Below, in pieces: positions 13,127-59,768 of a DNA stretch of 64,000 nucleotides (position 1 is its first letter; every line of letters begins with the position of its first letter). The stretch is from Bacilli bacterium (GTDB lineage Bacteria > Bacillota_I > Bacilli_A > RF39 > UBA660), in assembly GCA_017428495.1 (NCBI GenBank), contig JAFRQS010000011.1, forward strand, positions 74,920-138,919, given 5' to 3'. The position numbers and the translations under genes were made by a program. A model generated the notes under the pieces. It saw only the letters and a list, made by a program, of their open reading frames with translations. It did no database searches and was not told the origin of the DNA.

Positions 13127-13558
13127 TTAATTAGCTTTATATACTGGAATTAAGAATGAATATAATTCCTTAATATCATCAACTGTTTTGTCCTTATATT
13201 CATCATCAGCCATTATATATATTACATAATTATCTTTTCTTTCAATTTTATTAATAGATACATTATTTTCTAATTCTCTAACAGCAATTTTATAATTATC
13301 TTCTGCATCTTTTTCTGTTGGATACTCATAATAATGCTCATACCCAGTAATTTGATTTAACTCATTATAATAAAATACTAATTTATACTTATTATCATTA
13401 TTAAAAACTAATTTAGTACTATCTGTATATAATTTGTCTGAAATTTTTTCAATTGCTGGTTTTTCATCCTTTTTAATATCTTCTTTTTTGGAACAACCAC
13501 AACCAACCAATAGTAAGCATATACTAACGCATACAAACAATTTTAATACATTTTTCAT
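13127..13558 (-). CDS. hypothetical lipoprotein
   Basis: 143 aa; lipobox LLLVGCGCS; 10 nt upstream of ppaC start (same operon). Confidence 0.5.
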   Translation of the reverse strand: MKNVLKLFVCVSICLLLVGCGCSKKEDIKKDEKPAIEKISDKLYTDSTKLVFNNDNKYKLVFYYNELNQITGYEHYYEYPTEKDAEDNYKIAVRELENNVSINKIERKDNYVIYIMADDEYKDKTVDDIKELYSFLIPVYKAN

Positions 13559-13613
13559 AATTTCACCAACCCTACTATATAATTATATAACACATAATAT
13601 TAAAAGTAAATAA

Positions 13614-14138
13614 TTAACGTTTCAAAAGAAATCTTCTATTATATACATCTTTATCATTCAATTGATAATAATCTATAGCATCATTAACTATATAACTTGC
13701 TTTATATTTTTCTCTAAATCTTTCAATTTCCTCATCACTAAGTTTTAATCCAGAAACAAATCTAACAGTTCTATCTGGGCTCAAATTAAGCCCATACTCA
13801 ATAATTTCTTCTCTAGTTAATATCTTCAATATTTCTAAATTTTGTGCAGCATATAACCCATAATAACCATCATCCACTTCTACTACTCTATCTTGTTCTC
13901 TTTCTCTAATTTCACCAAAAGCACGTACCTCACATATAAATATATCTTCACATAAATTACTTTTATCAGATTTAAAAAATCTAAATGTATCCTCCATATT
14001 AGTACAAAAATGATATCCATGACCATCATTACCATATCTTACATCCTTATCAGTAGAATATATAATACCTTCTCTAATATCTATACCATATCTATTCTTA
14101 CCATTAGCATTAAAACATTTATATCCAAATAACTCCAT
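13614..14138 (-). CDS. hypothetical protein (conserved-looking GNDGHGYHFC motif)
   Basis: 174 aa ORF, no signal peptide; no family recognised by eye. Confidence 0.4.
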   Translation of the reverse strand: MELFGYKCFNANGKNRYGIDIREGIIYSTDKDVRYGNDGHGYHFCTNMEDTFRFFKSDKSNLCEDIFICEVRAFGEIREREQDRVVEVDDGYYGLYAAQNLEILKILTREEIIEYGLNLSPDRTVRFVSGLKLSDEEIERFREKYKASYIVNDAIDYYQLNDKDVYNRRFLLKR

Positions 14139-17677: not shown

Positions 17678-18373
17678 TTATAGCTTTAATACTGAGTTAA
17701 GTGCTAAATCTATCATTTTTATTGTACTTTTTTCTCTTTCTTCACTTGTAAGTTTTTCACCAGTTATTAAACTATCTGATACAGTAAGAATACAAGCTGC
17801 ATTCTTATTTAACACTTTAGCGTTTGTAAACAATGCAAAAGATTCCATTTCTACAGCAATACAACCATAATTTAAATATTCACTATAATCTTTATTATAA
17901 AAGGTATCTGTACAATGAATATTACCTCTTACTACATTTATTCCATTATTATTTATAGTTTCCTCTATAACTTTATTTAAATTTAAAGATGCACTAATAT
18001 TATTCTCATTATAACCAAGATTAATGCCATATGCAGTATTACTATAAGATTTATCTACTAGAACTAAATCAAATAATTTTAAATCAGTAGTATATGCTCC
18101 ACAAGTACCAATTCTAATTATATAATCCACATTATAGTCATTAAATAATTCATAAGAATAAATACCCATTGAAGCATTACCCATACCACTAGCCATTACT
18201 GTTATTCTTTTGCCTTTGTAATATCCAGTATATCCAAGCATACCACGAACATTATTTATTAATTTATAATCAGTTAAAAATTTTTCTGCTATAAATTTAG
18301 CTCTATTTGGATCTCCTGGCATTATTACTACTTTACTTATGTCTTCTTTTAAAGCACCTATATGTACTGTCAT
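17678..18373 (-). CDS. deoD: purine nucleoside phosphorylase, DeoD type
   Basis: Aligns by eye with E. coli DeoD: VIMPGDPNRAKFIAEKFL...NNVRGMLGYTGYYKGKRITVMASGMG; start set at MTVHIGAL. Confidence 0.8.
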   Translation of the reverse strand: MTVHIGALKEDISKVVIMPGDPNRAKFIAEKFLTDYKLINNVRGMLGYTGYYKGKRITVMASGMGNASMGIYSYELFNDYNVDYIIRIGTCGAYTTDLKLFDLVLVDKSYSNTAYGINLGYNENNISASLNLNKVIEETINNNGINVVRGNIHCTDTFYNKDYSEYLNYGCIAVEMESFALFTNAKVLNKNAACILTVSDSLITGEKLTSEEREKSTIKMIDLALNSVLKL

Positions 18374-18414: not shown

Positions 18415-18948
18415 TCAATTCTTTACTTTACATTTACCAATTTCATCTTTTGTAATAATCATATCAGTTGTATTTTCATCAATAAATTCTTCATATCTTC
18501 TACATACTTCTAAATCAGATTCAAATTCTCTAACTAATTCCTCATATCCTTTTGCTACATAAATAACAGGCCTATTAAACATTAAATTCTTTCTTAATTC
18601 ATTATTTTTCTCTTCTGCATTTTCCTTAGCTTCTTCAAATGTATCAAATAATTCTACTACTATTTCAACTGGCCAAGGAGTCATATTGTAATTAAATCTA
18701 ATTGTATCTTTTTCGTCACTTTCTAGATTACTGTTTTTAAAATTTTTAATATTATTATATGGAAAAAATACTATATTAGACGTCTTTAATGTACCATCAA
18801 CAGAATATATAACAGCACTACTTAATACATAACATTTAGATGCTATATACCCCAATATTACCTTTTTATATCCTTGTAAATAACCACCCTGCTCTTTTAC
18901 TTCTAACACTGCATATTTTATTGGATATTTCATTACCATAATATTCAC
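18415..18948 (-). CDS. hypothetical protein, member A of a 3-gene tandem paralog array
   Basis: 177 aa; shares YP[IV]KYAV, GYI.SKCYV, FPY, ENTTDM, KCKVK motifs with the two upstream genes; no signal peptide. Confidence 0.6.
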   Translation of the reverse strand: MNIMVMKYPIKYAVLEVKEQGGYLQGYKKVILGYIASKCYVLSSAVIYSVDGTLKTSNIVFFPYNNIKNFKNSNLESDEKDTIRFNYNMTPWPVEIVVELFDTFEEAKENAEEKNNELRKNLMFNRPVIYVAKGYEELVREFESDLEVCRRYEEFIDENTTDMIITKDEIGKCKVKN

Positions 18949-19464
18949 CTATTCCTTAACTTTACGTTTAACTTTATCTACAACCATATCTGTTGTATTT
19001 TCTGAAATATAACTTTCATATAATCTACATGCTACAAATGTTCTATCAATTTGTTGAGATATTTTTTCTCTAGTTATAGAATGTTCTATATAAGCAATTT
19101 TTTCTTCTTTTAAATAAATATTTTTCCATTTTACTGCTAAAGCTGCTTCTTCATATGTATCATATAATTCATTAACTATAAATTCTGGATGTTCAAGATT
19201 TTCTCTTTCCGGTACACATCTTTGCTCATAGTAACTATCTCCATTTAAGTGTTTTCTAAAATATTCATTAAAATCACCAAATCTTCTATATGGAAAGGTT
19301 ACTATATGCCTAATAGTTGGTCCATCATTTCTATCATATTTAATTCTATCTTCAACAACATAACATTTTGATACAATGTATCCCTCTGTAATATCTCTAT
19401 ATTCTTCAGTAGAATCGCCTATAACTTTTAGTACTTCTACTGCATATTTTATTGGATAACTCAT
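18949..19464 (-). CDS. hypothetical protein, member B of tandem paralog array
   Basis: 171 aa; MSYPIKYAVEVLK...GYIVSKCYVVEDRIKY...VTFPYRRF...ISENTTDMVVDK. Confidence 0.6.
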   Translation of the reverse strand: MSYPIKYAVEVLKVIGDSTEEYRDITEGYIVSKCYVVEDRIKYDRNDGPTIRHIVTFPYRRFGDFNEYFRKHLNGDSYYEQRCVPERENLEHPEFIVNELYDTYEEAALAVKWKNIYLKEEKIAYIEHSITREKISQQIDRTFVACRLYESYISENTTDMVVDKVKRKVKE

Positions 19465-19483
19465 ATTAAAATCTCCTTTTCAA

Positions 19484-20005
19484 CTAAATTTTAACTTTAC
19501 ATTTTTCTTTATCTACAACCATATCTGTTGTATTTTCTGAAATAAAAATTGCATATTCTCTACATAAATCTAAATCCTCATCAATTTGTTTGCTTAAACT
19601 TTCAAATTGTGCACTTGATGTATGTAATAACAGCTCACTTTTTAAATTATTGTTTCTTCTTTCTGCTTCAAGATATGCATCTTCAATATTATCATATAAT
19701 TTTTCCATAACAACTAATTCTTCTAATGAAGGTATGTTTCTTTGTTCATAATATGCTTGCGGTAAACGGAATGGACTTGTATGTATATTTTTAAGTATTT
19801 TATTATATCTAATAAAGTCTTCAAATCTACTATATGGAAATGTTACAGCATGCACAACATATGGAGTATGTCCACCATATCTAATTCTGTCTTCTATAAC
19901 ATAACACTTTGATACAATATATCCTTTTATTGTGTCTTGGTAATCTTCAACGTATCCACCTTCAATTTTTAATTCTTCTACTGCATATTTAACTGGGTAA
20001 CTCAT
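19484..20005 (-). CDS. hypothetical protein, member C of tandem paralog array
   Basis: 173 aa; MSYPVKYAVEELK...GYIVSKCYVIEDRIRY...VTFPYSRF...ISENTTDMVVDKEKCKVKI; 8 nt downstream of lon stop. Confidence 0.6.
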   Translation of the reverse strand: MSYPVKYAVEELKIEGGYVEDYQDTIKGYIVSKCYVIEDRIRYGGHTPYVVHAVTFPYSRFEDFIRYNKILKNIHTSPFRLPQAYYEQRNIPSLEELVVMEKLYDNIEDAYLEAERRNNNLKSELLLHTSSAQFESLSKQIDEDLDLCREYAIFISENTTDMVVDKEKCKVKI

Positions 20006-22533: not shown

Positions 22534-23430
22534 TATATCTAAAACTGCTAATATAAATATGCCCACCAAAACAATACCTATTGATGCGTATTCTTTTCTA
22601 CTTAATTTTTCTTTTAAAAATACTCTAGATAAAATCATAGATAGGACACAATAACTTCCTACTATTGGTGCTGATATTGTTGAATTACTAGACATTGCAT
22701 AAACATAAAAGAATTGACCTATTGTTTCAAATATTGCTGCAAATATTTTTGGCTTTTCAAAAGAGATGTTAAAAGTCTCTTTTTTTAATTTTAAATAAAT
22801 ATATGTAATTATTGAATATAATAAAAATGTTAATTCATATGCAATAAGAGCACTATCTTCATTAATCAATTCAAATTTATCTAAATATATTCCATCTAAA
22901 AAAGTCCCTGCACCATCTAATATACAATAAATCAAAGGAAAAACAATTGTATATATTATAACCTTTAATTTCACATTATTCTTTTTATATTCAATTCTCA
23001 CTGATTTATTTTCTTTTACTTCAATTAATGATAATGCAAATATACCTATAAATATTAATGCTACTGCAATATAGAATGGAAAATCATAATGTTCTTTAAA
23101 AAATACTAATAATAATAATGCAGTAATGACACCACTAGTATTTTGTACTGGACTGGATATAGATAATTCTAAATATTTTAATCCTTTATATCCTATAACC
23201 ATACTAGAAATATATAACAATGAAACTGGTAAATATTTTAATATATCAATAATATCTATTGAAAGTCCTTTAACAATCATATAGATAATAGCATGAATAC
23301 CCATTACTAATCCAACTATTATTCCTGTTTTTAAATGATTATTATCTTCATCACCTTTATTACCAATTTTATAAAATAAATCTGCTACACCCCAGCATAC
23401 AAATGTTAAAAGAGCAAACATAATCCACAT
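22531..23430 (-). CDS. EamA/DMT-superfamily transporter
   Basis: 299 aa, about 10 TM helices arranged as two EamA-like halves. Confidence 0.6.
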   Translation of the reverse strand: MWIMFALLTFVCWGVADLFYKIGNKGDEDNNHLKTGIIVGLVMGIHAIIYMIVKGLSIDIIDILKYLPVSLLYISSMVIGYKGLKYLELSISSPVQNTSGVITALLLLVFFKEHYDFPFYIAVALIFIGIFALSLIEVKENKSVRIEYKKNNVKLKVIIYTIVFPLIYCILDGAGTFLDGIYLDKFELINEDSALIAYELTFLLYSIITYIYLKLKKETFNISFEKPKIFAAIFETIGQFFYVYAMSSNSTISAPIVGSYCVLSMILSRVFLKEKLSRKEYASIGIVLVGIFILAVLDI

Positions 23431-48375: not shown

Positions 48376-48735
48376 CTATGTACGATGAAAACCAGAAATA
48401 TAATGGCCATCATTATATATACTATAACTTACATATCCTTTAATTTCAGAATTATCTCTAGGATCAAGTATCGGACAATCTAAATATTTATTTTCACATA
48501 AATCATCAATATCAATGCTTACAGAGTCTCCAACTACATTCAATTCCTCATATAAATCAGGATTATCAAGCATATAATTTTGAGCAACTCTTTCTATTTC
48601 ATTCACTATATCAGTATATAATGCATTTTTCTTTTTATTATATATATCTAATACATTAGGTACAGCAATCATAGCTAACATACCAAGAATTGCTATTACA
48701 GCAATTAATTCTATTAAAGTAAATCCCTTTTTCAT
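48376..48735 (-). CDS. small type IV pilin/pseudopilin (prepilin-type N-terminal cleavage/methylation domain)
   Basis: 119 aa; canonical leader MKKG/FTLIELIAVIAILGMLAMIAVPNV with Glu+5. Confidence 0.7.
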   Translation of the reverse strand: MKKGFTLIELIAVIAILGMLAMIAVPNVLDIYNKKKNALYTDIVNEIERVAQNYMLDNPDLYEELNVVGDSVSIDIDDLCENKYLDCPILDPRDNSEIKGYVSYSIYNDGHYISGFHRT

Positions 48736-48802
48736 ACTATCACCTATTATAATTATATCACATATATAAAAATTACCACAATATTTTTATCGTGGTAATT
48801 TA

Positions 48803-49657
48803 TTATTCATTTTCCTTAATTTCTACTTTAGTATTAGCAGAATCTTCTAATAATTTTGGATTATCAAATATATACTGCAATATTTTAGCAGATTTAACAA
48901 AATAATAACCATCTGCTATTCTCTCATCAAAATTCATACCAAATTCACATAATTTTCTTATCTCTTTTTTACCATTTACTATTACTTCTTCATCTTTAAT
49001 TTCTCCCATAGTCACAAGTGAAGAACATGTTCCAAAGTTTGTTATATTATGGTATATAGCACCACATTTTATACTACCTAAATTAGATACCATCATACTA
49101 CTATAATATACATTGTCACTTACTAAACTCTTAGGAAGCATTCCATTTTTATCAAACCATTTTAATATACCAACTACTGGTACTCTTATTATATTAGGAA
49201 GTTTACCTAATATATCAATTGCACTATTTGCGCCTTCTTTTTTAGATTTTTTATTTCTAAAGCCACTTACCTTTTCCATTATTTTTTTACTAATTGATTC
49301 CAAATTATCATTTTCATTTATTGGAATCATAATCATAACCTCTTCACTCTTATCATCAAAAGAAACTTTAGCAACAAAACTTATAACAACATCATTATGT
49401 TCATAAACATGTCTATTAGCAATAAATCTATTTAATTTTGGTCTATTATATAAAGTTTTACCAATAGCAGTTACAAATGTATGAAAATATGTAATATCAC
49501 TACCATTCTTTTTCTTATTATTTACATATTTAACAAGTTCTGTAACATCCATCTTCTGATTTATATATACATCACTATCACATCTTTGTGGTTTTAAATC
49601 AACAAGTATTTGTTCCATACCACCTAAATTTCTAATTCTTTTCGCATCTTTCCTCAT
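48803..49657 (-). CDS. 2-oxoacid dehydrogenase E2 acyltransferase catalytic-domain-like protein, no lipoyl domain, active-site DHRxxDG replaced by DERIADG
   Basis: 284 aa; hand alignment with E2 catalytic domains (ITYFHTFVTAIGKTL / MVSNLGSI..GAIY / FGMNFDERIADGYYF vs canonical LSFDHRVIDGA). Confidence 0.55.
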   Translation of the reverse strand: MRKDAKRIRNLGGMEQILVDLKPQRCDSDVYINQKMDVTELVKYVNNKKKNGSDITYFHTFVTAIGKTLYNRPKLNRFIANRHVYEHNDVVISFVAKVSFDDKSEEVMIMIPINENDNLESISKKIMEKVSGFRNKKSKKEGANSAIDILGKLPNIIRVPVVGILKWFDKNGMLPKSLVSDNVYYSSMMVSNLGSIKCGAIYHNITNFGTCSSLVTMGEIKDEEVIVNGKKEIRKLCEFGMNFDERIADGYYFVKSAKILQYIFDNPKLLEDSANTKVEIKENE

Positions 49658-49835
49658 AAATCCTCCTATGCATAATAATCAAATATGCCTAAACATAAAT
49701 ATAAATTTATAAATATCAATATTATCTTTCTTAATTGCATTAATAGTCTTCTTCATTATAACAATATATAACTATTGTAAGATCTATTATACCATCACTT
49801 TAACTTATAATTTTATTTTAGCATATTACATAAAT

Positions 49836-49866
49836 AAAAAAAAGAATTATTATTTAAATAATTCTT
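49836..49866 (-). terminator. rho-independent terminator at end of the 5-gene surface-protein cluster
   Basis: AAGAATTATT-ATTTA-AATAATTCTT hairpin overlapping the stop of the 313-aa gene with A/T runs. Confidence 0.5.
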
Positions 49867-50779
49867 TATCATAAAAGCCTTTAAATTTAATTTTACTTTT
49901 ATCATTAAATGTTATAACTATAATATTATTTTCCAACTCACTTATATTAGATACATACTTATTATATTTCTTAATAGTATCACCTTCAACATATAACATT
50001 TCATTATCTGAGGTTATAATAAATTCAGTAGGAACATTTTTAAATCCACTAATATTATTACCCATACCAACTAATATAATATTTTTAACTTTAACATCTT
50101 TATTATCCTTTTTAAATACTTCACCATTAATTTTAGATATTGACATATCAGAATATAATATATATTCATTATTTATGTACATCATATCTTTATCATAAGG
50201 AAATAAGGTATATACATCATACAATTTGTTTTTTGCGGTTAATACTACAAAACTCATATGATTTATATTAATGTAACTTTTTACTTTTAAATTTGTAAAA
50301 TTAACAATTTTTTCATTGGGAATATCAATTTTATTGATATATAACTCATTTAAATTGTCATTATTCAACACAAACTTATATAAATTTCCATCTTCAGTTA
50401 TGCCAAAAGCATTTAATCCTTTTTCGAAAAACATACTAGCATCATATAATGTATTAAATTTTACATTCTCAAGTACTTCCTTATTACTTGAATTCAAACT
50501 TATATGTAAATGCTTTTCATCATCAATATACAATTTGCCAACATTATTATCATTAATAACAGTAAATTCAATTTTATTGATGACATTATAAAATATATTA
50601 TCTTTATAAGACTCATTATATTCAATTGAATTAATGTGTTTTATTCCCTCATACTGAAAAGTAAAACTTTTAGAATCACTTTTATCAGATTTCATAAATT
50701 TGTAATATGATAAGTATCCTACAAATACTAAAAACATTATAACAAATACAATCAACACTATCCTTAACTTTTTATTCAT
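49850..50779 (-). CDS. membrane-anchored hypothetical protein (N-terminal TM, extracytoplasmic body)
   Basis: about 309 aa from MNKKLRIVLIVFVIMFLVFVGYL; RBS GGGTGATTAT upstream. Confidence 0.55.
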   Translation of the reverse strand: MNKKLRIVLIVFVIMFLVFVGYLSYYKFMKSDKSDSKSFTFQYEGIKHINSIEYNESYKDNIFYNVINKIEFTVINDNNVGKLYIDDEKHLHISLNSSNKEVLENVKFNTLYDASMFFEKGLNAFGITEDGNLYKFVLNNDNLNELYINKIDIPNEKIVNFTNLKVKSYININHMSFVVLTAKNKLYDVYTLFPYDKDMMYINNEYILYSDMSISKINGEVFKKDNKDVKVKNIILVGMGNNISGFKNVPTEFIITSDNEMLYVEGDTIKKYNKYVSNISELENNIIVITFNDKSKIKFKGFYDKELFK

Positions 50780-50802
50780 ATAATCACCCATTACTTTATA
50801 TC

Positions 50803-51657
50803 TTAACCCATTTTCTTAACAGAGGCTTCTTTAGCCATATTTAATTCTTCTGTAGTAACTCTCATTGATTCAGGAATCCAATTTAAATATATATGTACCA
50901 TATCATTGTGAGAGTAATAACCTCTTCCACCTTCTTTTCCAAATGGAAAAAACTCAAACATATATTCATCTTCTTCATTTGTTAATTCTCTATCATAATA
51001 TTCAATCCAAAAATTGGCCGCCATAACAACGTTATCTACCAAACGTAGTTGTATATCATTGTTACAAAAATATGGATGAATACCTTCAAACTCTACTACT
51101 TCATGATTCATAGCATTCCAAGTTAATGGTCCAAAATCTTCACCTGTAGTGTGATAAGTAAATAATTCCTCATTAGTAAATAAATCCTTAAATTTATATA
51201 TATTTTCATTTGGAGTATTATATACATATCCAAACATTACTTTTGGTTTACCTTCAATGAAGAAACAAGCTGAGAAATAAAGATTTGAATCATTTATTTC
51301 ATCGTCATCATATGTTTCATATTTTTTCATTTCTTCAGCTTCTTCTTCTTCTGAAAGTCTTTTAAATACCAATTCACTTGAATCATCAATAACTGGTTCT
51401 TCATTAATTTCAATATTTTCATTTTCAACAATTGGTTCTATAGTTGGTTGTGGAGTAGGTTCTGGGGTTGCTTTAATAATAGGATCAACGGATGGAGAAG
51501 GTATAACAGTTTCAATAGGTGTTACCGTTTCCTCTATAATATCCGTTTTATCTAAAGAATAATTGTCACATCCAACTAAAATACTAGATGCCAATAATAC
51601 TGCTGCAATTTGCGTTGCTATTTTGCCATTATACTTATTATTTCTCTGTAATTTCAT
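50803..51657 (-). CDS. hypothetical lipoprotein with Pro/Thr-rich linker
   Basis: 284 aa; lipobox SSILVGC; linker TPIETVIPSPSVDPIIKATPEPTPQPTIEPI. Confidence 0.55.
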   Translation of the reverse strand: MKLQRNNKYNGKIATQIAAVLLASSILVGCDNYSLDKTDIIEETVTPIETVIPSPSVDPIIKATPEPTPQPTIEPIVENENIEINEEPVIDDSSELVFKRLSEEEEAEEMKKYETYDDDEINDSNLYFSACFFIEGKPKVMFGYVYNTPNENIYKFKDLFTNEELFTYHTTGEDFGPLTWNAMNHEVVEFEGIHPYFCNNDIQLRLVDNVVMAANFWIEYYDRELTNEEDEYMFEFFPFGKEGGRGYYSHNDMVHIYLNWIPESMRVTTEELNMAKEASVKKMG

Positions 51658-51719
51658 AATGCCTCCTTAATTTGAATAAATATATTATATGCAATAATTT
51701 ATATTTGTCAATTTAATTG

Positions 51720-54071
51720 TTAACAACCTCCTGTTTCTGTATACGTAGCTGTAACAATGTCTTCTCGTTTTGAAGGATCTGCATAATATGAGACTCTTGT
51801 AAAAACGCAGTGTGTTTCTGTTGTTATAGTTCTCTGATGATTAGAACATATACCTTTTTTTACTGTATAATATGTACTACCTATATAACGTATATTTTTT
51901 TCATTTTTAGAGCAATTAGTCTCATGCCAACATGTTTTATAACCACATTGAATTGCATCTGCTTTATTTTCACAAGCTGTGCATGAATCCGCCCCACAAG
52001 AATCACATGCATTATAGCCACATATACTAGCATCTGTTACATCACCACACCATGCACACGTATTATATTCTATACATTTGTTTTTATTATTTGGATCATA
52101 TTTTTTGCAACCGCATGCTCCACAACTCCTAGGCTTACATGTAGCTGCACCACATCTTGAACATTTTTTATATCCACAATGTTCCACATCATTTCCATAA
52201 AATTCACACACCTCACATGTATCCGCACCACAACTCCAATGTTCACTTTTAACCCTATCGCAGTCTGGTTTTTGCACTTCTTCATTAAAATCATAGTGAC
52301 ATGATTCACCATTGTAACTACTTGAAGTTCCAGGGCCATCATCTGGAGGTTGAGTTTCACAATCTGATTTATAGCATCCTTGTCCATCACCTGTTGCTGA
52401 TGCAACCTGTCCATCTCCACAAGTTGCTTGTGATTTAGCTGTTTCTTCACTTGAATATGGATAATCTCCTGAACATACACAATCTACTTTATAACATCCT
52501 TCTCCATTATTAGAACATTGTTTTACTTGATTTGATGATGAACATGATATTGAATTCTTTGCATCATCTTCACTTATATGTGGATAGCTTGCTGGACATG
52601 CTTTTCCTTTTACAATTAATGTACAAGTACCAGTTTTTGTAGAATCCACTTTTGATGTTACTGTTACTGTTATTTTTTGATCTATTGGTGATAATCCATT
52701 ATTTCCTTTAACTTCTCCTGTTTCTTCATTTATTGTTGCATATGTTGTATCTGATAAACTCCATTTTACATCAGTCTTTGTAGAATTCTTTGGTGTATAA
52801 ACTTTCTCCATTTGCCCTATACCATTATATTCTATCTCTAAATTTTTACATCCTAATGTTTCAGGTATTCCATCCCATACTGTTACTTTACATGTTGATG
52901 TCTGTCCTCTTGTTGTTTTTACCCTTATTGTTACTTCCTTTGTACCTGTTATATTCTGCGCTGTTATTTGTGCCTTTGATAAACAATTCGAATTTGTATT
53001 ATTTAACTCACATGTTTCTGGTGGGTTTGAATATTGTATTGTTAAAGCACTTGGATCGCTACTTGTCCATTCCAACTTTCTATTTGCTGCATTTGCAGGT
53101 ACATATTGTGGATGTAATGTTACTTTTGTTCCAGAAGCTATTTTTATTCCTTCTGCTGGACATACAACATAACTTGAATTATCTGCACTTGGTTCATTTG
53201 GGTTTGTTTCTGGACTTAAATCATTTGGATTCTTTGGTACCAATACTTCTATATCTGTTGTACATACTTGTTTTCTTACTCTTTCTTTTATACTTTCATT
53301 TATTGTTCTTACATCTGTACTTTCACTAAATGTCCATGTATAAATATATTCATTACCTGATGATACTGGATTTGCTGTTACTATTCTTGTCTTTTCACTA
53401 CTCCATTTTCCACATTCACATATTGCATATCTTGCTGTTCTTTCTTTATCTCTTGGGGCTTCCTCATCTTGACATATTCCTATTGGTAAATTTGATTCTC
53501 CCCATCCTAAAAAGCTTATATCTCCTGGTATACAATCCATCTCTTCATCTGATATGTCTGATGCACACCTATTCTCTCCACTTGATGAATCTATTTCTAC
53601 TTTTGTTCCAAACTCTTGTCTTATTGTATTACATTCTTCTGCTGTCTTATCTTCACACAAAAAATCTATTACTTCATCTATTTTATATTTTGTCTCTATA
53701 ACACCATCTACTCGATTTACTAATCCAAATTCTTCTCCTCTTAATGATGTTACTCCACTTCTTATTCTTAATGATATCTTAGGTGGTACTTCATTTAAAT
53801 CTTCTACTATTATCTTATAGTCACCTATTGTTACATTTTGAGCAAATCTTCTTGTTAAATTCTCTATAAATTTATCTTCTGCTATTTTCATGTTTCCTGT
53901 TGTTCTATAATATTGCAAATCTATTGCATCATATGCTGCCGCTTGTGTTGTTTCTTTTATTAAATAATATACTCTATCATTATCTACTGTTACATTTTGA
54001 AATAAATTTACTACTAATATTCCAAATAATCCTAGTACTACTATTAGTACTCCCCATATCGCTTCTTTCAT
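51720..54071 (-). CDS. large surface protein: N-terminal membrane anchor, two Big_2-like Ig domains, C-terminal Cys-rich CGY-x2-C repeat region
   Basis: 783 aa; N-term hydrophobic MKEAIWGVLIVVLGLFGILVVNLF; Big_2-like segments (VVCPAEGIKIASGTKVTLHPQYVPANAANRKLEWTSSDPSALTIQ; KVYTPKNSTKTDVKWSLSDTTYATINEETGEVKG); C-terminal about 150 aa with about 35 Cys including HCGYKKCSRCG, ICGYNACDSCG, QCGYKTCWHETNC. Confidence 0.6.
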   Translation of the reverse strand: MKEAIWGVLIVVLGLFGILVVNLFQNVTVDNDRVYYLIKETTQAAAYDAIDLQYYRTTGNMKIAEDKFIENLTRRFAQNVTIGDYKIIVEDLNEVPPKISLRIRSGVTSLRGEEFGLVNRVDGVIETKYKIDEVIDFLCEDKTAEECNTIRQEFGTKVEIDSSSGENRCASDISDEEMDCIPGDISFLGWGESNLPIGICQDEEAPRDKERTARYAICECGKWSSEKTRIVTANPVSSGNEYIYTWTFSESTDVRTINESIKERVRKQVCTTDIEVLVPKNPNDLSPETNPNEPSADNSSYVVCPAEGIKIASGTKVTLHPQYVPANAANRKLEWTSSDPSALTIQYSNPPETCELNNTNSNCLSKAQITAQNITGTKEVTIRVKTTRGQTSTCKVTVWDGIPETLGCKNLEIEYNGIGQMEKVYTPKNSTKTDVKWSLSDTTYATINEETGEVKGNNGLSPIDQKITVTVTSKVDSTKTGTCTLIVKGKACPASYPHISEDDAKNSISCSSSNQVKQCSNNGEGCYKVDCVCSGDYPYSSEETAKSQATCGDGQVASATGDGQGCYKSDCETQPPDDGPGTSSSYNGESCHYDFNEEVQKPDCDRVKSEHWSCGADTCEVCEFYGNDVEHCGYKKCSRCGAATCKPRSCGACGCKKYDPNNKNKCIEYNTCAWCGDVTDASICGYNACDSCGADSCTACENKADAIQCGYKTCWHETNCSKNEKNIRYIGSTYYTVKKGICSNHQRTITTETHCVFTRVSYYADPSKREDIVTATYTETGGC

Positions 54072-54075
54072 ATTA

Positions 54076-55362
54076 TCACTTCCTATCTATGATATCTGGA
54101 TTTGCAATAATAAATTTGCTCTTATTCATCTCATTAATATTAAATGTATCATAAGGATGATTTTTATTATACTCTCTTACTCTTCCTATTTTACTTCTAT
54201 CTAAAGTTATAACAAATCTTTCCATTGTTGATAAATTACTACTAGTAGAAGTTATATATTTATTTACTAATGTCTTTCCATCTGGAGTAAGACCACTCCA
54301 GTTAGCTGAAGGCTCTCTATTTGGAAATGGATTATTAACATCAATTATTCTATATTGAAATGCCTGGCCACCATATTTATCATAATTTTCATCTGTTTCT
54401 GAACCTGGTTTTGTCACAGGGAATGATAAATTTTTTACTTTATATGAACAATTTACATTTAAATTCCATACATCTCCACCTGCTATTAAATTATTACCTA
54501 AATTTCTAGCAGTTAATACTAATGAATATCCTCTATCAGTAGGATCTGATGCAACTGGCCTTGTATACTCATTAAATGATGTAAAATACTTATCTCCAGC
54601 ATTACACCTATCATATCTATATGTAGATTCTATATTTCCAGTATTTAACTCCAAAAATGTATCAGCCATTGTGTATTTACCATTTAACATAACTGTTTCA
54701 TTCCAACTTTTAATTGTTTTATTACTAAGTTTACAATCATAAGTCGCTTCATCAAAATTACATGCCATAGGAGTTACATTTATCTCATCCATATCTACAA
54801 CTTTTGAATATTCACCCATTTGAGAAAAATGATAAGGAATAGTTTCTACATTCTGAGAAGTAGATACATTTAACTCTACATTTCCATTAAATTTATACTT
54901 ATGAATATTTGATTCATCATCTGATGTAAATTCATCACAAGCTTTTTTATTTTCATAATAATTAACTATTTCTCTTCTTTTGGTTTCTTTTTCTTCACCT
55001 GATAAACTTTTATATTCATTTACCAATTCTTTTATTTTAGATTCATATTGAGTATATTTATATTCAGCAGTACAATTTCTCTTTCCACTAGCATATAATG
55101 GATAATTAAAACCAGTTCCTGCTAATACTCTTTTTATAGGATCAACTGAAAACAATATTTCTTCTTTACATTTAATAGTACAAACATCATTTTTTAGTAC
55201 TTCAATTTCATTCTCAGTTCTAAATGTAGTAACCGTACTTTTACTTGCATCACATGTAATCTCTCTACTATTTGTATTAACCGTATTTATAACTGGATCA
55301 CATGTAGCAGCAAAAGTTACAACTGGTAACAATAACGCAAATAATAATAATTTCTTTTTCAT
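54076..55362 (-). CDS. secreted Cys-containing hypothetical protein
   Basis: 428 aa; signal peptide MKKKLLLFALLLPVVTFAA; 4-nt gap/overlap coupling to flanking genes. Confidence 0.55.
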   Translation of the reverse strand: MKKKLLLFALLLPVVTFAATCDPVINTVNTNSREITCDASKSTVTTFRTENEIEVLKNDVCTIKCKEEILFSVDPIKRVLAGTGFNYPLYASGKRNCTAEYKYTQYESKIKELVNEYKSLSGEEKETKRREIVNYYENKKACDEFTSDDESNIHKYKFNGNVELNVSTSQNVETIPYHFSQMGEYSKVVDMDEINVTPMACNFDEATYDCKLSNKTIKSWNETVMLNGKYTMADTFLELNTGNIESTYRYDRCNAGDKYFTSFNEYTRPVASDPTDRGYSLVLTARNLGNNLIAGGDVWNLNVNCSYKVKNLSFPVTKPGSETDENYDKYGGQAFQYRIIDVNNPFPNREPSANWSGLTPDGKTLVNKYITSTSSNLSTMERFVITLDRSKIGRVREYNKNHPYDTFNINEMNKSKFIIANPDIIDRK

Positions 55363-56021
55363 AATATACCTCGATTCTTTGACCTTCTTTTCATAATTAT
55401 TCTTAATAAAACCAATAATATAATTGTTAAACTAACAATTATCAAATGTCTATGTTCATATATATATCCAAGCACATCTATATTGGTTTCATCATTCTCT
55501 TGTGGTTTAATTTCTGTTTCTTCTCTTTTATTTAAACTTTCTATATACTCATTCATCTTTTTTTCAAATTCTTTTTCACTCAAATTAACATTAGAATTTT
55601 CTTTACATAAAAAGTAATTTTCATATCCTTTGCACAAATCACTTTTTGAATATTTATTATAATATGGAACATTTATTACCTTTGTAAGTATTTTATATCC
55701 TTCACAATAATTATTATTGGATGCATATATTATAACTTGTATTTTACTTCCAGGTGTTAATCCATCAATAACATTACTTGAGTATTTTTTTCCATTACTA
55801 TCTGCCAAATACATATGCTTTGTTATATTGTAAAATATCACTTTATATGTAACTTTATCATTTTCAATATTTTTACTAAGTCTATATACAACATCATTAG
55901 CATCACTTCTAAGTGCTGTTTTAAAGCTATTTGTACATCTTGAATCTATTACATCATATTTTGCTAATGTAGTAATTGGTATAAATAGTAACATTAATAG
56001 CAAATAACGCAATTTCTTCAA
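55359..56021 (-). CDS. type I membrane protein (signal peptide, about 150-aa ectodomain, C-terminal TM and basic tail)
   Basis: 220 aa; N-term MKKLRYLLLMLLFIPITTLA, C-term LIIVSLTIILLVLLRIIMKRRSKNRGIL. Confidence 0.55.
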   Translation of the reverse strand: MKKLRYLLLMLLFIPITTLAKYDVIDSRCTNSFKTALRSDANDVVYRLSKNIENDKVTYKVIFYNITKHMYLADSNGKKYSSNVIDGLTPGSKIQVIIYASNNNYCEGYKILTKVINVPYYNKYSKSDLCKGYENYFLCKENSNVNLSEKEFEKKMNEYIESLNKREETEIKPQENDETNIDVLGYIYEHRHLIIVSLTIILLVLLRIIMKRRSKNRGIL

Positions 56022-56157: not shown

Positions 56158-56643
56158 ATGAAAAAGAATAAAGTAGCATGGCTTTTACCATTCATAGTAA
56201 TTATTATATTGAGAAGTTGTAATGCTATAAGAGAACAAGAGACTGGCGAAACTAGATATCAAAGATATCAAAGATATAAAGCTGGAACAACAAGTAGCCA
56301 AATGTATAATAATGATTATACTGAGTGCAAAACAATGGCATACTATGAAGATAAAACTAAGGATAGTTTTTATGCAGTTATGGATTACGCCTGTTTAAAA
56401 GAAGGATATCCACTATATGATTGGTATAAAGATGATATGAATGTAAAAGGATATTGCGAAAAAGATCAAATAGTATATGTGGAATCAACTAATGGTGAAT
56501 ATGCGCATGTATTTACTGATAAGAATATAGATGGTTATATACCTACCAGTATTTTAGAATATATACATAAGGAATATTTAGAACAAGATATATCAGAACC
56601 ATCTGTAAAAGTTCTCAAAAAACAAAAACTAGGAAATTCCTAG
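56158..56643 (+). CDS. secreted/membrane-anchored protein with C-terminal bacterial SH3-like domain (paralog 1)
   Basis: 161 aa; N-terminal hydrophobic anchor; C-terminal FYAVMDYACLKEGYPLYDWYKDDMNVKGYCEKDQIVYVESTNGEYAHVFTDKNIDGYIPTSILEYI. Confidence 0.6.
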   Translation: MKKNKVAWLLPFIVIIILRSCNAIREQETGETRYQRYQRYKAGTTSSQMYNNDYTECKTMAYYEDKTKDSFYAVMDYACLKEGYPLYDWYKDDMNVKGYCEKDQIVYVESTNGEYAHVFTDKNIDGYIPTSILEYIHKEYLEQDISEPSVKVLKKQKLGNS

Positions 56644-56719: not shown

Positions 56720-57265
56720 ATGAAAAAGAGGAAATCAAAAGGAAATGGTGCAAAAGCATTATTAATGGCATTTTTAGTTGTACTTGTAGTAAGAGGTTGT
56801 ATAATAGATAGCCAAAAACAACCACATAGTTCAACAAGCAGCAGAACAAATGATGATTCATACAGTAGTGATACTACAATAAGACAATATCAACCTACTA
56901 CATATTATTTAAAAGATGGTACTCCAATTGAATCATCAACAGGTTATGTACCTGAAGGATATGTATATAATGGAACATATTTAATACCTAAAGAATCTGG
57001 TGACAACTTTTATGCAGTTAGAGAATATGCATGCTTAAAAGAGAGTTATCCATTATATGATTGGTATAGAGATGATATGTGCGTAATAGGATATTGCGAA
57101 AAAAATCAAATAGTATATGTAAGTTCAACAAATGGTGATTATTCACATGTATTTACTAGCGATAATGTAGATGGTTACATACCTAATAGTATGTTAGAAT
57201 ACGTACCAGAAGAATATTTAGATCAAGACATATCAGAACAATTTGTAAAAGTACTTAAAAGATAA
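56720..57265 (+). CDS. secreted/membrane-anchored protein with C-terminal bacterial SH3-like domain (paralog 2)
   Basis: 181 aa; FYAVREYACLKESYPLYDWYRDDMCVIGYCEKNQIVYVSSTNGDYSHVFTSDNVDGYIPNSMLEYV nearly identical domain to paralog 1. Confidence 0.6.
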   Translation: MKKRKSKGNGAKALLMAFLVVLVVRGCIIDSQKQPHSSTSSRTNDDSYSSDTTIRQYQPTTYYLKDGTPIESSTGYVPEGYVYNGTYLIPKESGDNFYAVREYACLKESYPLYDWYRDDMCVIGYCEKNQIVYVSSTNGDYSHVFTSDNVDGYIPNSMLEYVPEEYLDQDISEQFVKVLKR

Positions 57266-57391: not shown

Positions 57392-57416
57392 AAAAAACTA
57401 GTAAACTAGTTTTTTA
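57392..57416. terminator. bidirectional terminator-like palindrome between convergent genes
   Basis: AAAAAACTAG-taaa-CTAGTTTTTT, contains the stop of the 125-aa minus-strand gene. Confidence 0.4.
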
Positions 57417-57783
57417 TTGAAAGTATTGAATATATATTTAATAATATATCATAGAATAATAATATCACTAAGTAATAACTTAAATGTATATATTCTACTA
57501 ATAGAATATTATTATATATAATTGATATTACTATTAAAAATATGAATAATATTAAATATGATATTGGTAATAATATATTATCAAATTCATATTTTTTCTT
57601 TTTTAATAATATAGTAAATATTATTGCTAATACAACATTTATACCAATAAAGAAATACATGAATTTATTTACCATAATGATAGTTGTAGTTAAACTATAT
57701 ACAAATATTGATGTTCCAAGTGTTAATGCAAAACATATATAATAAAGTATTAAATATAACTTATTCTTCATTTTGTACCTCAC
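57406..57783 (-). CDS. small integral membrane protein (4 TM)
   Basis: 125 aa, hydrophobic throughout; overlaps end of upstream gene (operon with FAD protein). Confidence 0.5.
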   Translation of the reverse strand: MRYKMKNKLYLILYYICFALTLGTSIFVYSLTTTIIMVNKFMYFFIGINVVLAIIFTILLKKKKYEFDNILLPISYLILFIFLIVISIIYNNILLVEYIHLSYYLVILLFYDILLNIYSILSIKN

Positions 57784-58324
57784 TCGCTAATTCTATATAT
57801 TTTTCAATTATTGATAATTCATTATTTCTTTTAATATTTTCAGTTGCATTAAATAAACTTACTTCAAATGCTTCTTCCAAACTATCACGTAGTGTAATTT
57901 CATATGCAAACATATGCTCTTTATAAATATATTCATATGGTATTATAGCTGACATATACATAGTTGATACATAGTTTTCATTTAATATTTCATCAGTAAA
58001 TCCACATGCATATTTAGCCTTAGTGTAATTAGTTAATATTGTATTATCAGTATATAACTTTTTAATATTTACTTTTCCTTCATAATTAGAATCTTTAACC
58101 TTATCGATAAAGCTAATTATAAAGTCTTTACATTCACCATCTTTTAATTTATTAGCAGCTTCTTTATATAATTCTATTTTCTTATTAAAATCATCCAATG
58201 ATGGAAATTCTACTACTGGATTATATCTGAGTAAATTACATAGTATTAATACAACTAAGGATATACCTGATATTATAAAGAAATAGAATATGCCTTCTTT
58301 AATTTTATTTTTCATTTCTTTCAC
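57761..58324 (-). CDS. membrane-anchored hypothetical protein
   Basis: 187 aa; N-terminal TM (IFYFFIISGISLVVLILCNLL) then soluble domain. Confidence 0.5.
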   Translation of the reverse strand: MKEMKNKIKEGIFYFFIISGISLVVLILCNLLRYNPVVEFPSLDDFNKKIELYKEAANKLKDGECKDFIISFIDKVKDSNYEGKVNIKKLYTDNTILTNYTKAKYACGFTDEILNENYVSTMYMSAIIPYEYIYKEHMFAYEITLRDSLEEAFEVSLFNATENIKRNNELSIIEKYIELASEVQNEE

Positions 58325-59768
58325 CTGTTAATATTCTGGCCATTTTAACACCAGCACATGATGCCATCATAAGCCCAGTAGTAAGTCCTCCACCATCACC
58401 TATTGAATACAAACCATTTATATTAGTCATAAAGTTCTTGTCAAGCACTACTTCATTACTATAAAATTTTATTTCAGGTCCATATAATAAATTATCTGGG
58501 TGTGCAAATCCTTCCACTACTTTATCTACATCTTTTATAAATTGCAATATATCAGTCATTGTTCTATATCCAAGACCATATGTTAAATCTCCTGCTACTG
58601 CTCCTTTTAATGTTGGTACTACACTATTATTTTCTAAATCTTTTGGCCATGTTCTTCTACCTCTATTTATATCTCCCAATCTTTGTACCATAATTGCATT
58701 CCCACCTAATCTATTTAAGTTTTGTGCAACATTTTCACCATATTCAATAGGTTTATCAAATGGATATGTAAAATGATGAGATACAAGTATTGCTAGATTT
58801 GTATTAGTACTTTTTTTATCTTTATATGAATGACCATTTACTAATGTAAGTCCATTATCATATACTTCTGCACTTACAAATCCGCTTGGATTTTGACAAA
58901 AAGTTCTTACTTTATCTCCATATGGAAATGGTCTACCTATAAACTTACCTTCATACATATATTCATTTATTTTAGCCATTACTTTATCAGGAAGTTCATA
59001 ACGAATTCCAATATCAACGCTTCCTAATTTTGTATTAATACCATGTTTAATACATATTTCACTTAACCAAGAAGCACCTTTTCTTCCCACAGCAAGTACC
59101 ACTTTTGAACCCATAATATCTTCATCAGTTTTATCTTTTAATTTATGTACTTTTACACCTTTTACTGTACCATCTTCTATAATTAAATCTTTAACTTCAG
59201 TTTCAAATAACATATTAATATTATGCTCTTTTAAATATTCTTCTAATTTACCATATAAAATATGAGCTTTTTCAGTACCTAAATGTCTTATTGGATATGA
59301 TACTAAGTTAAGATTATTTCTTGATGCTTTTTCTTGAAGTTTTTTAATTTCATCCATATGTTCTACACCATTTAACTTCTTATCTGCACCAAATTTTAAA
59401 TAAACATTATCTGTGTAAGTAAGTAAATCAGTAATTTCTTTTTCAGTCATATATTGTTTGAAATATCCACCATCATTACCACCAAGATATATATTTCCAT
59501 CTTTATCTCTACTTGATAAATGATAAGAATTTAATTTACCATCTGAAAAAGCACCTGCACCACTAAAACCACATGTAATATTACAATATGGTTTACAATT
59601 AACACAATGGCCAACTTTTTCCATTGGACAACTTCTTCTTTCAACTGGTTTACCCTGATCTATTAATAATACATTTTTATAATTATTAAGTTCAATCAAT
59701 TCATAAGCCAAGAATACAGCACTTGGCCCCATGCCTACTACTATTAAATCATACATTTTTATCACCAA
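58305..59768 (-). CDS. FAD-dependent protein (COG2509-type NAD(FAD)-utilising dehydrogenase)
   Basis: 487 aa; N-terminal Rossmann dinucleotide motif DLIVVGMGPSAVFLAYEL, C-terminal GDGGG motif. Confidence 0.7.
   Translation of the reverse strand: MVIKMYDLIVVGMGPSAVFLAYELIELNNYKNVLLIDQGKPVERRSCPMEKVGHCVNCKPYCNITCGFSGAGAFSDGKLNSYHLSSRDKDGNIYLGGNDGGYFKQYMTEKEITDLLTYTDNVYLKFGADKKLNGVEHMDEIKKLQEKASRNNLNLVSYPIRHLGTEKAHILYGKLEEYLKEHNINMLFETEVKDLIIEDGTVKGVKVHKLKDKTDEDIMGSKVVLAVGRKGASWLSEICIKHGINTKLGSVDIGIRYELPDKVMAKINEYMYEGKFIGRPFPYGDKVRTFCQNPSGFVSAEVYDNGLTLVNGHSYKDKKSTNTNLAILVSHHFTYPFDKPIEYGENVAQNLNRLGGNAIMVQRLGDINRGRRTWPKDLENNSVVPTLKGAVAGDLTYGLGYRTMTDILQFIKDVDKVVEGFAHPDNLLYGPEIKFYSNEVVLDKNFMTNINGLYSIGDGGGLTTGLMMASCAGVKMARILTGERNEK

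Follow-up and report, generated by a model that had tools for sequence, protein, structure and literature searches.

The 64,000-nucleotide (nt) stretch of DNA analysed here (the window; contig JAFRQS010000011.1 of the Bacilli bacterium assembly GCA_017428495.1) carries, at positions 49850 to 56021 of its minus strand, a cluster of five genes for exported proteins, in the middle of which lies w783 (51720 to 54071), a gene for a 783-amino-acid (aa) protein that begins with a DUF5411 domain. Read from 5′ to 3′, the cluster opens with w220 (55359 to 56021), encoding a 220-aa type I membrane protein with a signal peptide, an ectodomain of ~150 aa with four conserved Cys residues, a C-terminal transmembrane (TM) helix, and a basic tail ending in RGIL; this gene is followed by w428 (54076 to 55362), encoding a secreted 428-aa protein with a signal peptide and 10 Cys residues, nine of which are invariant in the family alignment. 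Downstream of w783, the product of which has an N-terminal TM helix, lie a gene for a 284-aa lipoprotein (50803 to 51657) with an LVGC lipobox and a Pro/Thr-rich linker, and w313 (49850 to 50791), encoding a 313-aa extracytoplasmic protein that is anchored by an N-terminal TM helix, contains no Cys, and shows Tyr/Gly-rich conserved positions in its family alignment. An initial annotation of the window had placed seven consecutive minus-strand open reading frames (ORFs) here, namely these five and the genes for an E2-like protein and a small pilin, and the ORF list bears out all seven at their claimed coordinates; the tight packing described for the five (a 4-nt overlap and then gaps of 4, 62, and 11 nt, in 5′ to 3′ order) is as stated, and an export signal is legible in the translations of all five products. 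The terminator proposed after w313 is likewise present, as an AT-rich 11-bp hairpin with a U-run (~49841 to 49867, minus strand; RNA folding free energy -7.7 kcal/mol, z -2.1). The cluster is nevertheless not simply one operon: a consensus sigma-70 promoter, TTGACA-16-TATAAT, lies in the 62-nt gap before the lipoprotein gene (51684 to 51711, minus strand; 12/12 positions in the scan), and in the closely related locus L002, TTGACA-17-TATAAT is found at the same place before the lipoprotein gene, though that gene is the last of the cluster there. By scan, the cluster promoters look sigma-70-like, or sigma-A-like.

Scans of the seven proteins against NCBIfam, PHROGs, and Pfam returned only DUF5411, Big_2, 2-oxoacid_dh, and N_methyl, plus generic immunoglobulin (Ig) matches in PHROGs; Pfam assigns Big_2 to the 783-aa protein, part of the 2-oxoacid_dh catalytic domain to the E2-like protein, and N_methyl to the pilin. 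There was no match for w220 in Pfam or NCBIfam, for the lipoprotein in Pfam, or for w313 in the PDB or Pfam, and searching the w428 profile against PDB sequences gave nothing meaningful. No LPXTG or SLH Pfam domain was found and w783 ends in ...TYTETGGC, with no hydrophobic tail, in keeping with the reported lack of sortase/LPXTG and S-layer signatures. The further statement that no known system is recognisable in the cluster did not hold up, as the DUF5411 domain of w783 (aa 1-135, 53667 to 54071, minus strand; PF17424, E 1.6e-37, match at aa 1-129) leads to a Tad-like pilus operon.

Only one paper that mentions DUF5411 was found. Miller, Stern and Burstein (2022; PMC9523054) predicted, computationally and without experiments, an 8-9-gene "secretion-related" operon in Roseburia, Ruminococcus, and Eubacterium, which encodes CpaF, PilC/GspF, a DUF5411 protein, and an internalin-like protein, was taken as a predicted membrane machinery, and was detected more than 2000 times; the system to which the cluster leads, initially called undescribed, had hence been predicted already, and it is uncharacterised. 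A metagenome scan with stand-alone DUF5411 proteins gave 80 loci, 31 of them long, and 28 of the latter open in the order c1, c7, DUF5411, c2 (CpaB), c3 (T2SSE), c4, c5, where c numbers denote protein families; most of the loci that reach far enough go on with c8, c6, c9, and c10. From the first position to the eleventh, these genes encode a type I membrane protein (c1, ~250 aa), a secreted Cys-rich protein (c7, ~1100 aa), the DUF5411 protein (~137 aa), an RcpC/CpaB plus SAF protein (c2, 1-2 copies, ~270 aa), a T2SSE ATPase of the CpaF/VirB11 type (c3, ~368 aa), two TadB/C-like proteins (c4, a membrane protein of ~300 aa, and c5, ~262 aa, with a weak T2SSF match), a small pilin-like protein starting "MKEATGELN..." (c8, usually 2 copies, ~82 aa), a protein starting "M[KR]E[AS]IGG..." (c6, usually 2 copies, ~160 aa), c9 (~330 aa), and c10 (usually 2 copies, ~116 aa).

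The order w220, w428, DUF5411 in the window, with the 4-nt overlap of w220 and the gene that follows it, is that of c1, c7, DUF5411 in the operon. With regard to w220, phmmer matched c1 proteins in 21 operon loci (E 7.7e-11 to 2e-4), and hhalign aligned the two families over their full length (probability 99.2%, E 6.6e-20); w220 orthologues are also present in L010, L011, L015, L098, L099, L100, and L101. With regard to w428, aa 235-409 align with the C-terminal region of the ~1100-aa c7 (hhalign probability 98.3%, E 1.8e-14), a match of only ~175 aa, and the ~700-aa N-terminal part of c7 is missing; the last 100 residues of w428 are highly conserved, yet modelled with low confidence. These comparisons show that w220, w428, and the DUF5411 gene are, as judged from sequence, homologous to and co-ordered with the three opening genes of the Tad-like operon. 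Hidden Markov models (HMMs) of the w428 and w313 families gave no full-length match among Clostridial operon proteins, and w313 and the lipoprotein are taken to have no counterpart in these operons because the family HMM gave no such match.

A physical link between the module and the machinery is provided by L098 and L100, both members of the window's own family of long DUF5411 proteins. L098 encodes, in this order, w220-like and w428-like proteins, a DUF5411 protein of 977 aa, a w313-like protein, a lipoprotein, a second DUF5411 protein (1090 aa, with three HINT domains), a further w313-like protein and lipoprotein, and then CpaB, the ATPase, c4, c5, c8, c6, c9, and c10; the arrangement in L100 is the same, except that it has one cassette and lacks a lipoprotein gene. 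In two relatives, a module of the window type, including a w313-like gene and in one case a lipoprotein gene, is thus contiguous with the machinery. The pilin-like proteins of this linked machinery are of its own small MKEATGELN... type, not of the class III GFTLIE type.

The DUF5411 domain itself behaves as a conserved, widely used N-terminal module. When aa 1-135 were searched against a library of 1.84 billion proteins, they matched 547 representative clusters; in nearly all of the 150 matches listed, the domain forms the very N-terminus of the protein; total lengths range from 106 to 1664 aa, and many of these proteins are stand-alone forms of ~135-150 aa. An extreme N-terminal position in proteins of such varied length is as expected of a module onto which other domains have been grafted. 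DUF5411 is also the most conserved segment of the locus, with 97% identity to L002, 84% to L099, and 62% to L007 and L008; the corresponding values are 100%, 70%, and 43% for w428, and 26-33% for w313. In an AlphaFold2 model of w783 (49-sequence alignment, mean predicted local distance difference test score 72.8), the domain consists of one helix at aa 2-48 (the TM part extended), two short helices, and a three-stranded sheet (aa 85-93, 98-108, and 114-124). The following stalk (aa 136-407; 52851 to 53666, minus strand) is conserved and comprises a Cys-containing beta domain at aa ~185-280 and a first Ig-like domain at aa ~300-400; beyond it, the model shows a second Ig-like domain (aa ~400-490), two small repeats (aa 515-573), and a terminal beta domain (aa 714-782). 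The stretch at aa 616-715, with 19 Cys in CGYxxCxxCGAxxCxxC-type repeats, is poorly modelled.

Two further observations concern the composition and the N-terminus of these proteins. w783 contains 49 Cys in all and has a Cys-rich stretch at 51723 to 52225 (aa 616-783), and the c7 and pilin-like c8 proteins of related operons are likewise Cys-rich; such richness, which is unusual in an exported protein of a strict anaerobe, suggests metal binding or disulfide ladders. In addition, c8, c6 (14935 to 15969 in L081, and equivalents), and DUF5411 (54063 to 54071 in the window) all have M[KR]E directly before a hydrophobic helix; this start is found in 30/31 c8, 25/32 c6, and 73/131 DUF5411 representatives, and in none of the c1, c2, and c10 proteins. 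No prepilin peptidase gene was recognised in the DUF5411 operons. One possibility is that c8, c6, and DUF5411 are leaderless pilin-like subunits in which Glu3 takes the role of Glu5.

Among w783 homologues, only the N-terminal ~63% is conserved, and comparison with close relatives shows that the remainder is part of a strain-variable cassette (49862 to 52848, minus strand), which comprises the last Ig (Big_2) domain and the Cys-rich tip of w783 (aa ~408-783), the lipoprotein gene, and w313. Blastn alignments of the window with L002 and L005 show 97.4% identity up to 52848, where the last Ig domain of w783 begins (aa ~408), and 98.7% from 49862 onward; this second point falls within the terminator, which is thereby also the right-hand boundary of the cassette. 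The ~3 kb in between is replaced in L002/L005 by unrelated DNA of similar length, of which only 127 nt at the start of the lipoprotein gene can be aligned. The L002 cassette encodes a Big_2-repeat tip, a w313-family protein that is 26% identical to that of the window, and a lipoprotein sharing only its first ~54 residues, and the lipoprotein and w313 genes are in reverse order relative to the window. By contrast, the more distant L101 (w428 89% identical) has the tip type of the window together with the lipoprotein-first order, and tip and partners therefore travel together.

Tips among the homologues are Cys-rich, made of Big_2 repeats, Gly/Ser-rich, or composed of one to three HINT/BIL domains, and the w313 and lipoprotein families persist with every one of these types. 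The HINT domains, which are sometimes in tandem, stop 0-7 residues from the C-terminus, and no toxin domain was found after HINT or elsewhere in w783 or 10 homologues; the best PDB match was 2lwy, a BIL domain, alongside the HINT/BIL domains of homologues, and w783 itself has no HINT domain. The constancy of the partner families and the lack of a toxin domain favour structural or recognition partners rather than immunity proteins. The w313 family evolves fast (25-53% identity, with only five word-sharing homologues of w313), yet a member is nearly always present where the sequence downstream of a long DUF5411 gene is available, as in L002, L007 (two copies), L008, L012, L013, L097, L098 (two copies), L099, and L100. 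In the lipoprotein, the first ~50-75 aa are conserved in relatives and the C-terminal domain is specific to strain and lineage. Extra DUF5411 cassettes with a w313-like gene, some of them also with a lipoprotein gene, occur in L007, L097 (as a satellite), and L098.

Taken together, we consider it rather probable that the cluster at 49850 to 56021 is an accessory head/tip module of a DUF5411-type Tad-like (type IVc-like) pilus of gut Firmicutes, situated in this genome apart from the assembly genes. The suggestion of a surface appendage module whose assembly genes lie outside the locus is supported for the five-gene cluster, given that the machinery is contiguous in L098 and L100, and is not supported for the pilin and the E2-like protein. 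Under the mechanism that we propose, the 783-aa protein would be a modular pilin-like subunit, held in the membrane by its DUF5411 module and taken up by a Tad-like machine with c8 and c6, probably at the tip or the base of the pilus. A rod of ~650 aa, built of beta-sandwich and Ig domains, would be displayed away from the cell and end in the strain-specific Cys-rich tip; w428, corresponding to the docking part of c7, and w220 would serve as conserved partners of the DUF5411 module, while the lipoprotein and w313, being swapped along with the tip in a single recombination cassette, are probably partners specific to that tip. Such a system would be likely to mediate strain-specific adhesion or recognition between cells, and a pilus-displayed, strain-variable module with such a role is the best reading of the evidence.

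Several results weigh against this reading. w783, with the N-terminus MKEAIWGVLIV, has no class III signal peptide or G/FxxxE motif and matches neither N_methyl nor TIGR02532; only 73 of the 131 DUF5411 representatives start with M[KR]E; and DUF5411 has no sequence match to solved pilins in a PDB search, no weak link to the Tad, TadE, and PilX_N Pfam families at E up to 10, and only an N-terminal hhalign match to the c6 family, with a probability of 8% (a sequence search of the c6 profile against the PDB also gave nothing meaningful). Because fold searches with the whole w783 model returned Ig-type rods only, the pilin-like fold of DUF5411 rests on predicted topology and gene context. Moreover, tblastn with 18 machinery and adjacent downstream proteins of L098/L100, and with all Clostridial cluster members, found no CpaB, ATPase, c4-c6, or c8-c10 in the 64-kb window or in the loci of its closest relatives; Pfam showed housekeeping genes only among the window ORFs at 618 to 30648, and the only ORF of the window that starts with M[KR]E[ASTV] and a hydrophobic helix, as c8 and c6 do, is the DUF5411 protein itself. 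Finally, the related machinery has traits reminiscent of type IV secretion systems (T4SSs), namely ATPase matches to VirB11 and conjugal TadA, sub-threshold T4SS_pilin matches of c10, and Tcp-like conjugation genes downstream of the operon in both L098 and L100.

The lack of machinery genes also speaks for an explanation without any machine, namely that the DUF5411 helix is a plain membrane anchor of an Ig-rod adhesin that forms a fibril or coat with w428, w220, w313, and the lipoprotein. Machinery was not detected in the window or in the loci of L002, L099, L007, L008, L013, and L097, fold searches bring up S-layer proteins, intimin, Lig proteins, and cadherins as similar to the rod, and the sigma-70-like promoters of the cluster fit such a complex as well. 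However, DUF5411 is conserved far beyond the needs of a plain anchor (97% identity from strain to strain, 62-84% from genus to genus), L098 and L100 show a physical link of this family with the machine, a T2SSF gene lies ~10 kb away in L007, and the machinery search covered ~64 kb of the genome from which the window comes; we judge a machine-independent complex unlikely. About equally unlikely is contact-dependent competition, in which the DUF5411 protein would act as an effector akin to a polymorphic toxin, carried on or delivered through the Tad-like pilus and active through its variable C-terminus, and the lipoprotein and w313 would be cognate immunity or protection proteins. The conserved N-terminal ~63% with variable C-termini, the PT-HINT/BIL domains of many homologues, the exchange of tip and downstream genes as one block between flanks that are 97-99% identical, and the presence of several cassettes per genome (L007, L098) or of satellite cassettes (L097) all resemble the layout of polymorphic toxin systems and of the archaeal VARTIG module (PMC8416519). 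None of the C-termini examined contains a recognisable toxin domain, however, and HINT, sometimes in tandem, sits at the very C-terminus with nothing after it, unlike pretoxin HINT; furthermore, the partners are large (280-680 aa) and their families remain unchanged across Cys-rich, HINT, Big_2-repeat, and Gly/Ser-rich tips, whereas true immunity families normally change with the toxin. A role in conjugation or mating-pair formation, with the DUF5411 system as part of a Gram-positive T4SS and the variable tip recognising the recipient, appears improbable, more so than either of these. It would account for the best NCBIfam matches of the ATPase (VirB11, "TadA family conjugal transfer-associated ATPase", and TrbB), for its ~32% identity to CpaF/VirB11 family genes of conjugative Bacillus plasmids, for the matches of seven of eight c10 members to PF18895 (T4SS_pilin), for the TrbL_4, TcpE (weak), TraC-like, and VirB4/TraG P-loop genes that come next to the operon's end in L098 and L100, and for the large peptidoglycan hydrolases that follow it in L079 and L052. 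Against this, DUF5411 was found on 0 of 72,556 plasmids, uvrA follows the operon in L063, no T4SS genes are near the window module, the T4SS_pilin matches all fall under the Pfam cut-off, and CpaB (RcpC plus SAF) and the weak T2SSF match point to Tad.

The remaining alternative, that a single surface module comprises all seven genes, with the GFTLIE pilin as the fibre subunit and the E2-like protein as a component, had been the initial proposal and now seems most improbable of all. All seven do lie side by side on one strand, and this arrangement is retained in L002 and L099, which are close relatives and the only ones in which the E2-like and pilin genes adjoin the cluster. The E2-like gene (48803 to 49657, minus strand) and the pilin gene (48376 to 48735, minus strand) are nevertheless separate transcription units, each with promoter-like sequences of its own, separated by a strong terminator with a 14-bp stem (48801 to 48770); the pilin gene has its own hairpin as well. 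In L099, a ~70% identical relative, a cation-efflux gene lies between the two, and neither gene occurs within 10 kb of the module in L007, L008, L013, L097, L098, or L100; no N_methyl gene at all was found near the module in L007, L008, L097, L098, or L100, and the linked machinery has pilin-like proteins of its own. Being separate transcription units that are absent from the neighbourhood of the cluster in distant relatives, the two genes are placed outside the module, as independent, ordinary-looking neighbours. The pilin (119 aa, MKKGFTLIE...) is an orphan canonical type IV pilin that matches N_methyl (E 7e-7), TIGR02532 (E 6.6e-9), and PDB pilins and GspG. The E2-like protein (284 aa; 99.6% identical in L002 and 85% in L099) shares the catalytic-domain fold family of the 2-oxoacid dehydrogenase E2 core (PF00198, E 2e-13; PDB E2 cores), but the PF00198 matches are partial, Pfam finds no lipoyl or subunit-binding domain, and all NCBIfam E2 matches are far below their cut-offs. 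It reads FDERIADG where the canonical motif is DHRxxDG, with His replaced by Glu; since DERIADG stands for DHRxxDG, the catalytic His is absent, and the protein is probably a non-canonical or inactive member of the acyltransferase fold.

Two other roles were considered and set aside. A sporulation or exosporium role, prompted by the Cys-rich proteins and by the spoVE/spoVS neighbours, was dropped in view of the sigma-A-like appearance of the promoters and the pilus type of the homologous operons. A phage origin, prompted by Big_2, was rejected; PHROGs gave generic Ig matches only. In addition, hhalign of the w783 family against c7 found no relationship, so that the extension of w783 is not a transferred piece of c7.

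If the pilus-displayed module is combined with the features shared with polymorphic loci, a broader picture can be drawn, which we regard as speculative and, taken as a whole, unlikely. Gut Firmicutes would build a Tad-like pilus with a giant, leaderless, DUF5411-anchored tip subunit, the head and two membrane-bound partners of which are swapped as cassettes between strains, with several copies per genome. Such a system would confer private specificity in adhesion, self/non-self recognition, or contact-dependent antagonism, as a pilus-borne bacterial counterpart of VARTIG and polymorphic toxin loci, and the terminal HINT/BIL domains of many alleles could generate a reactive thioester at the pilus tip for covalent capture of a target or partner.

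Some observations on the related operons deserve mention in their own right. The c10 proteins (17441 to 18186 in L081; 21477 to 21788 in L098) are small two-TM proteins at the end of the operon with sub-threshold matches to PF18895, and the DUF5411 operon machinery may be a Tad/T4SS hybrid. Genes following the operon lie at 22884 to 23273 in L098, at 21251 to 22145 in L100, and at 17800 to 20046 in L079, the last encoding a 748-aa lysozyme plus M23 peptidoglycan hydrolase; they suggest a link of the operon to conjugation or cell-wall remodelling in some genomes.

With regard to the genomic background, the host is a spore-forming Firmicute with a G+C content of ~25%, and the window contains a GerA operon and genes for spoVS, spoVE, NrdD, Lon, and trigger factor. 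The rumen metagenome scaffold L001 is 100% identical to the window, and L002-L006 are contigs of the rumen metagenome-assembled genome (MAG) GCA_017388165.1, with flanks 97-99% identical to those of the window. The closest relatives that bear a name are MAGs with the labels uncultured Erysipelotrichaceae, Bacilli, or Clostridium, and a scan of genome contigs gave six loci, all in MAGs. The view that the locus is an insertion between murC and the dcw genes fits as clade-specific synteny and does not extend to more distant relatives, in which the module is at other loci; nor does the cluster abut the dcw genes, as five further genes separate it from spoVE, i.e., two plus-strand SH3-like paralogues, genes for 125-aa and 187-aa membrane proteins, and one for a 487-aa flavin adenine dinucleotide (FAD) protein.

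The SH3-like paralogues (56158 to 56643 and 56720 to 57265, plus strand) are 46% identical, divergently oriented, and combine a signal or anchor at the N-terminus with weak SH3 likeness at the C-terminus; behind each lies a near-identical hairpin with an 11-bp stem (AAAAACTAGGAA[A/G]TTCCTAGTTTTT), and the site is strain-variable, with one copy and an unrelated 253-aa gene in L002. At 57406 to 59768 (minus strand), the gene for the FAD-dependent protein (FAD-depend_C) overlaps that for the 187-aa protein, which is followed by that for the 125-aa protein, the latter two being multi-TM proteins of no known family; this trio is kept between spoVE and the variable region in L001-L006, L015, and L101. 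Elsewhere in the window, three tandem paralogous ORFs of 177, 171, and 173 aa (MSYP[IV]KYAVE... ENTTDM[VI]...KVK) lie between the Lon protease and purine/uridine phosphorylase-family genes (18415 to 20005, minus strand); they have no Pfam or NCBIfam family and no signal peptide. Finally, genes for a DUF7666 protein and a small lipoprotein form a pair at 13127 to 14138 (minus strand). The same pair occurs at 3242 to 8295 in L008 (where DUF7666 is annotated) and at 5029 to 9534 in L013 (where the lipoprotein is seen), directly upstream of a gene for a 1361-aa TM-anchored Ig/Big_2 protein that has a C-terminal HINT domain (...VHNLK) and adjoins the DUF5411 module; this protein represents a second family of HINT-tipped giant surface proteins in these bacteria.

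Abundant gut Clostridia very commonly carry DUF5411-type Tad-like operons, yet these are entirely uncharacterised. The locus described here adds that the head genes of such operons, c1, c7, and DUF5411, are a conserved unit that can be separated from the motor, that DUF5411 behaves as an N-terminal module for the grafting of large surface rods, and that, in an uncultured low-GC clade of the rumen and gut, recombination exchanges the distal end of such a rod and its two partners as a cassette, in which strains of a single species differ. Display of the module on pili would offer these bacteria a clear means of adhering or recognising in a strain-specific way in gut and rumen, and would yield concrete experimental targets in the cultivable Roseburia or Eubacterium; if there is no such display, the locus is still a well-delimited hypervariable surface locus that would be useful for strain typing.

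Among known systems, the operon of PMC9523054 is the closest. It has the DUF5411 protein in common with the window, where homologues of c1 (w220) and c7 (w428) lie in the same order directly upstream, and in L098 and L100 the genes for CpaB, the ATPase, c4, c5, c8, c6, c9, and c10 follow downstream. The window locus differs in that the machine genes are missing, c7 is shortened from ~1100 to 428 aa, the DUF5411 protein is lengthened from ~137 to 783 aa by Ig domains and a polymorphic tip, and two extra genes (w313 and the lipoprotein gene) follow DUF5411. PMC9523054 does not describe the c1 and c7 homology, the cassettes, or the long DUF5411 proteins. More generally, no earlier description was found of the homology that links c1 and c7 to the two window genes preceding DUF5411, of long DUF5411 proteins, of a cassette whose three parts are swapped together, or of a module detached from its machine.

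Polymorphic toxin systems, BIL/HINT proteins, and the archaeal VARTIG module (PMC8416519) share with the window family a conserved N-terminal part, a recombining C-terminal Ig domain and tip, and variable downstream genes. In the window family, by contrast, there is no toxin domain, HINT is terminal, and the downstream families are constant, and VARTIG is archaeal and not linked to pili. Large minor pilins or tip adhesins are also known from other systems, including PilB/PilC of Streptococcus sanguinis, CofB of enterotoxigenic Escherichia coli, and PilY1 bound to minor pilins. A large secreted partner that is not itself a pilin (c7/w428) is reminiscent of PilY1 docking on minor pilins, whereas strain-level swapping of a cassette together with partner genes is not described for modular minor pilins or tip adhesins. 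A further parallel is "pilin 938" of the TANB77 pilus cluster, a 621-aa protein with a TadE/PilV-like N-terminal quarter (PMC11680825), which likewise combines a short pilin-like N-terminal module with a large extension and a Tad-like machine, in uncultured low-GC gut Firmicutes. No sequence relationship to these modular minor pilins tested positive; DUF5411 is absent from the TANB77 protein, and a class III signal peptide from w783. Tad (type IVc) pili with their TadE/TadF/TadG pseudopilins, as in Bifidobacterium breve, Caulobacter, and the tad locus of Bulleidia extructa (PMC12786226), share with the related operons a CpaB-like protein, a CpaF/TadA-type ATPase, and a TadB/C-like platform, as well as the combination of small pilins with larger pilin-like proteins in which, as in TadG, C-terminal domains are added to an N-terminal helix. 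They differ in that no TadV prepilin peptidase and no Flp G/xxxxEY motif are seen in the DUF5411 operons, the N-termini of which are M[KR]E with almost no leader, and in that DUF5411 has no detectable sequence homology to TadE, TadF, or TadG. Tad pili with a large TadG-like pseudopilin and the TANB77 cluster are functional analogues of the system described here.

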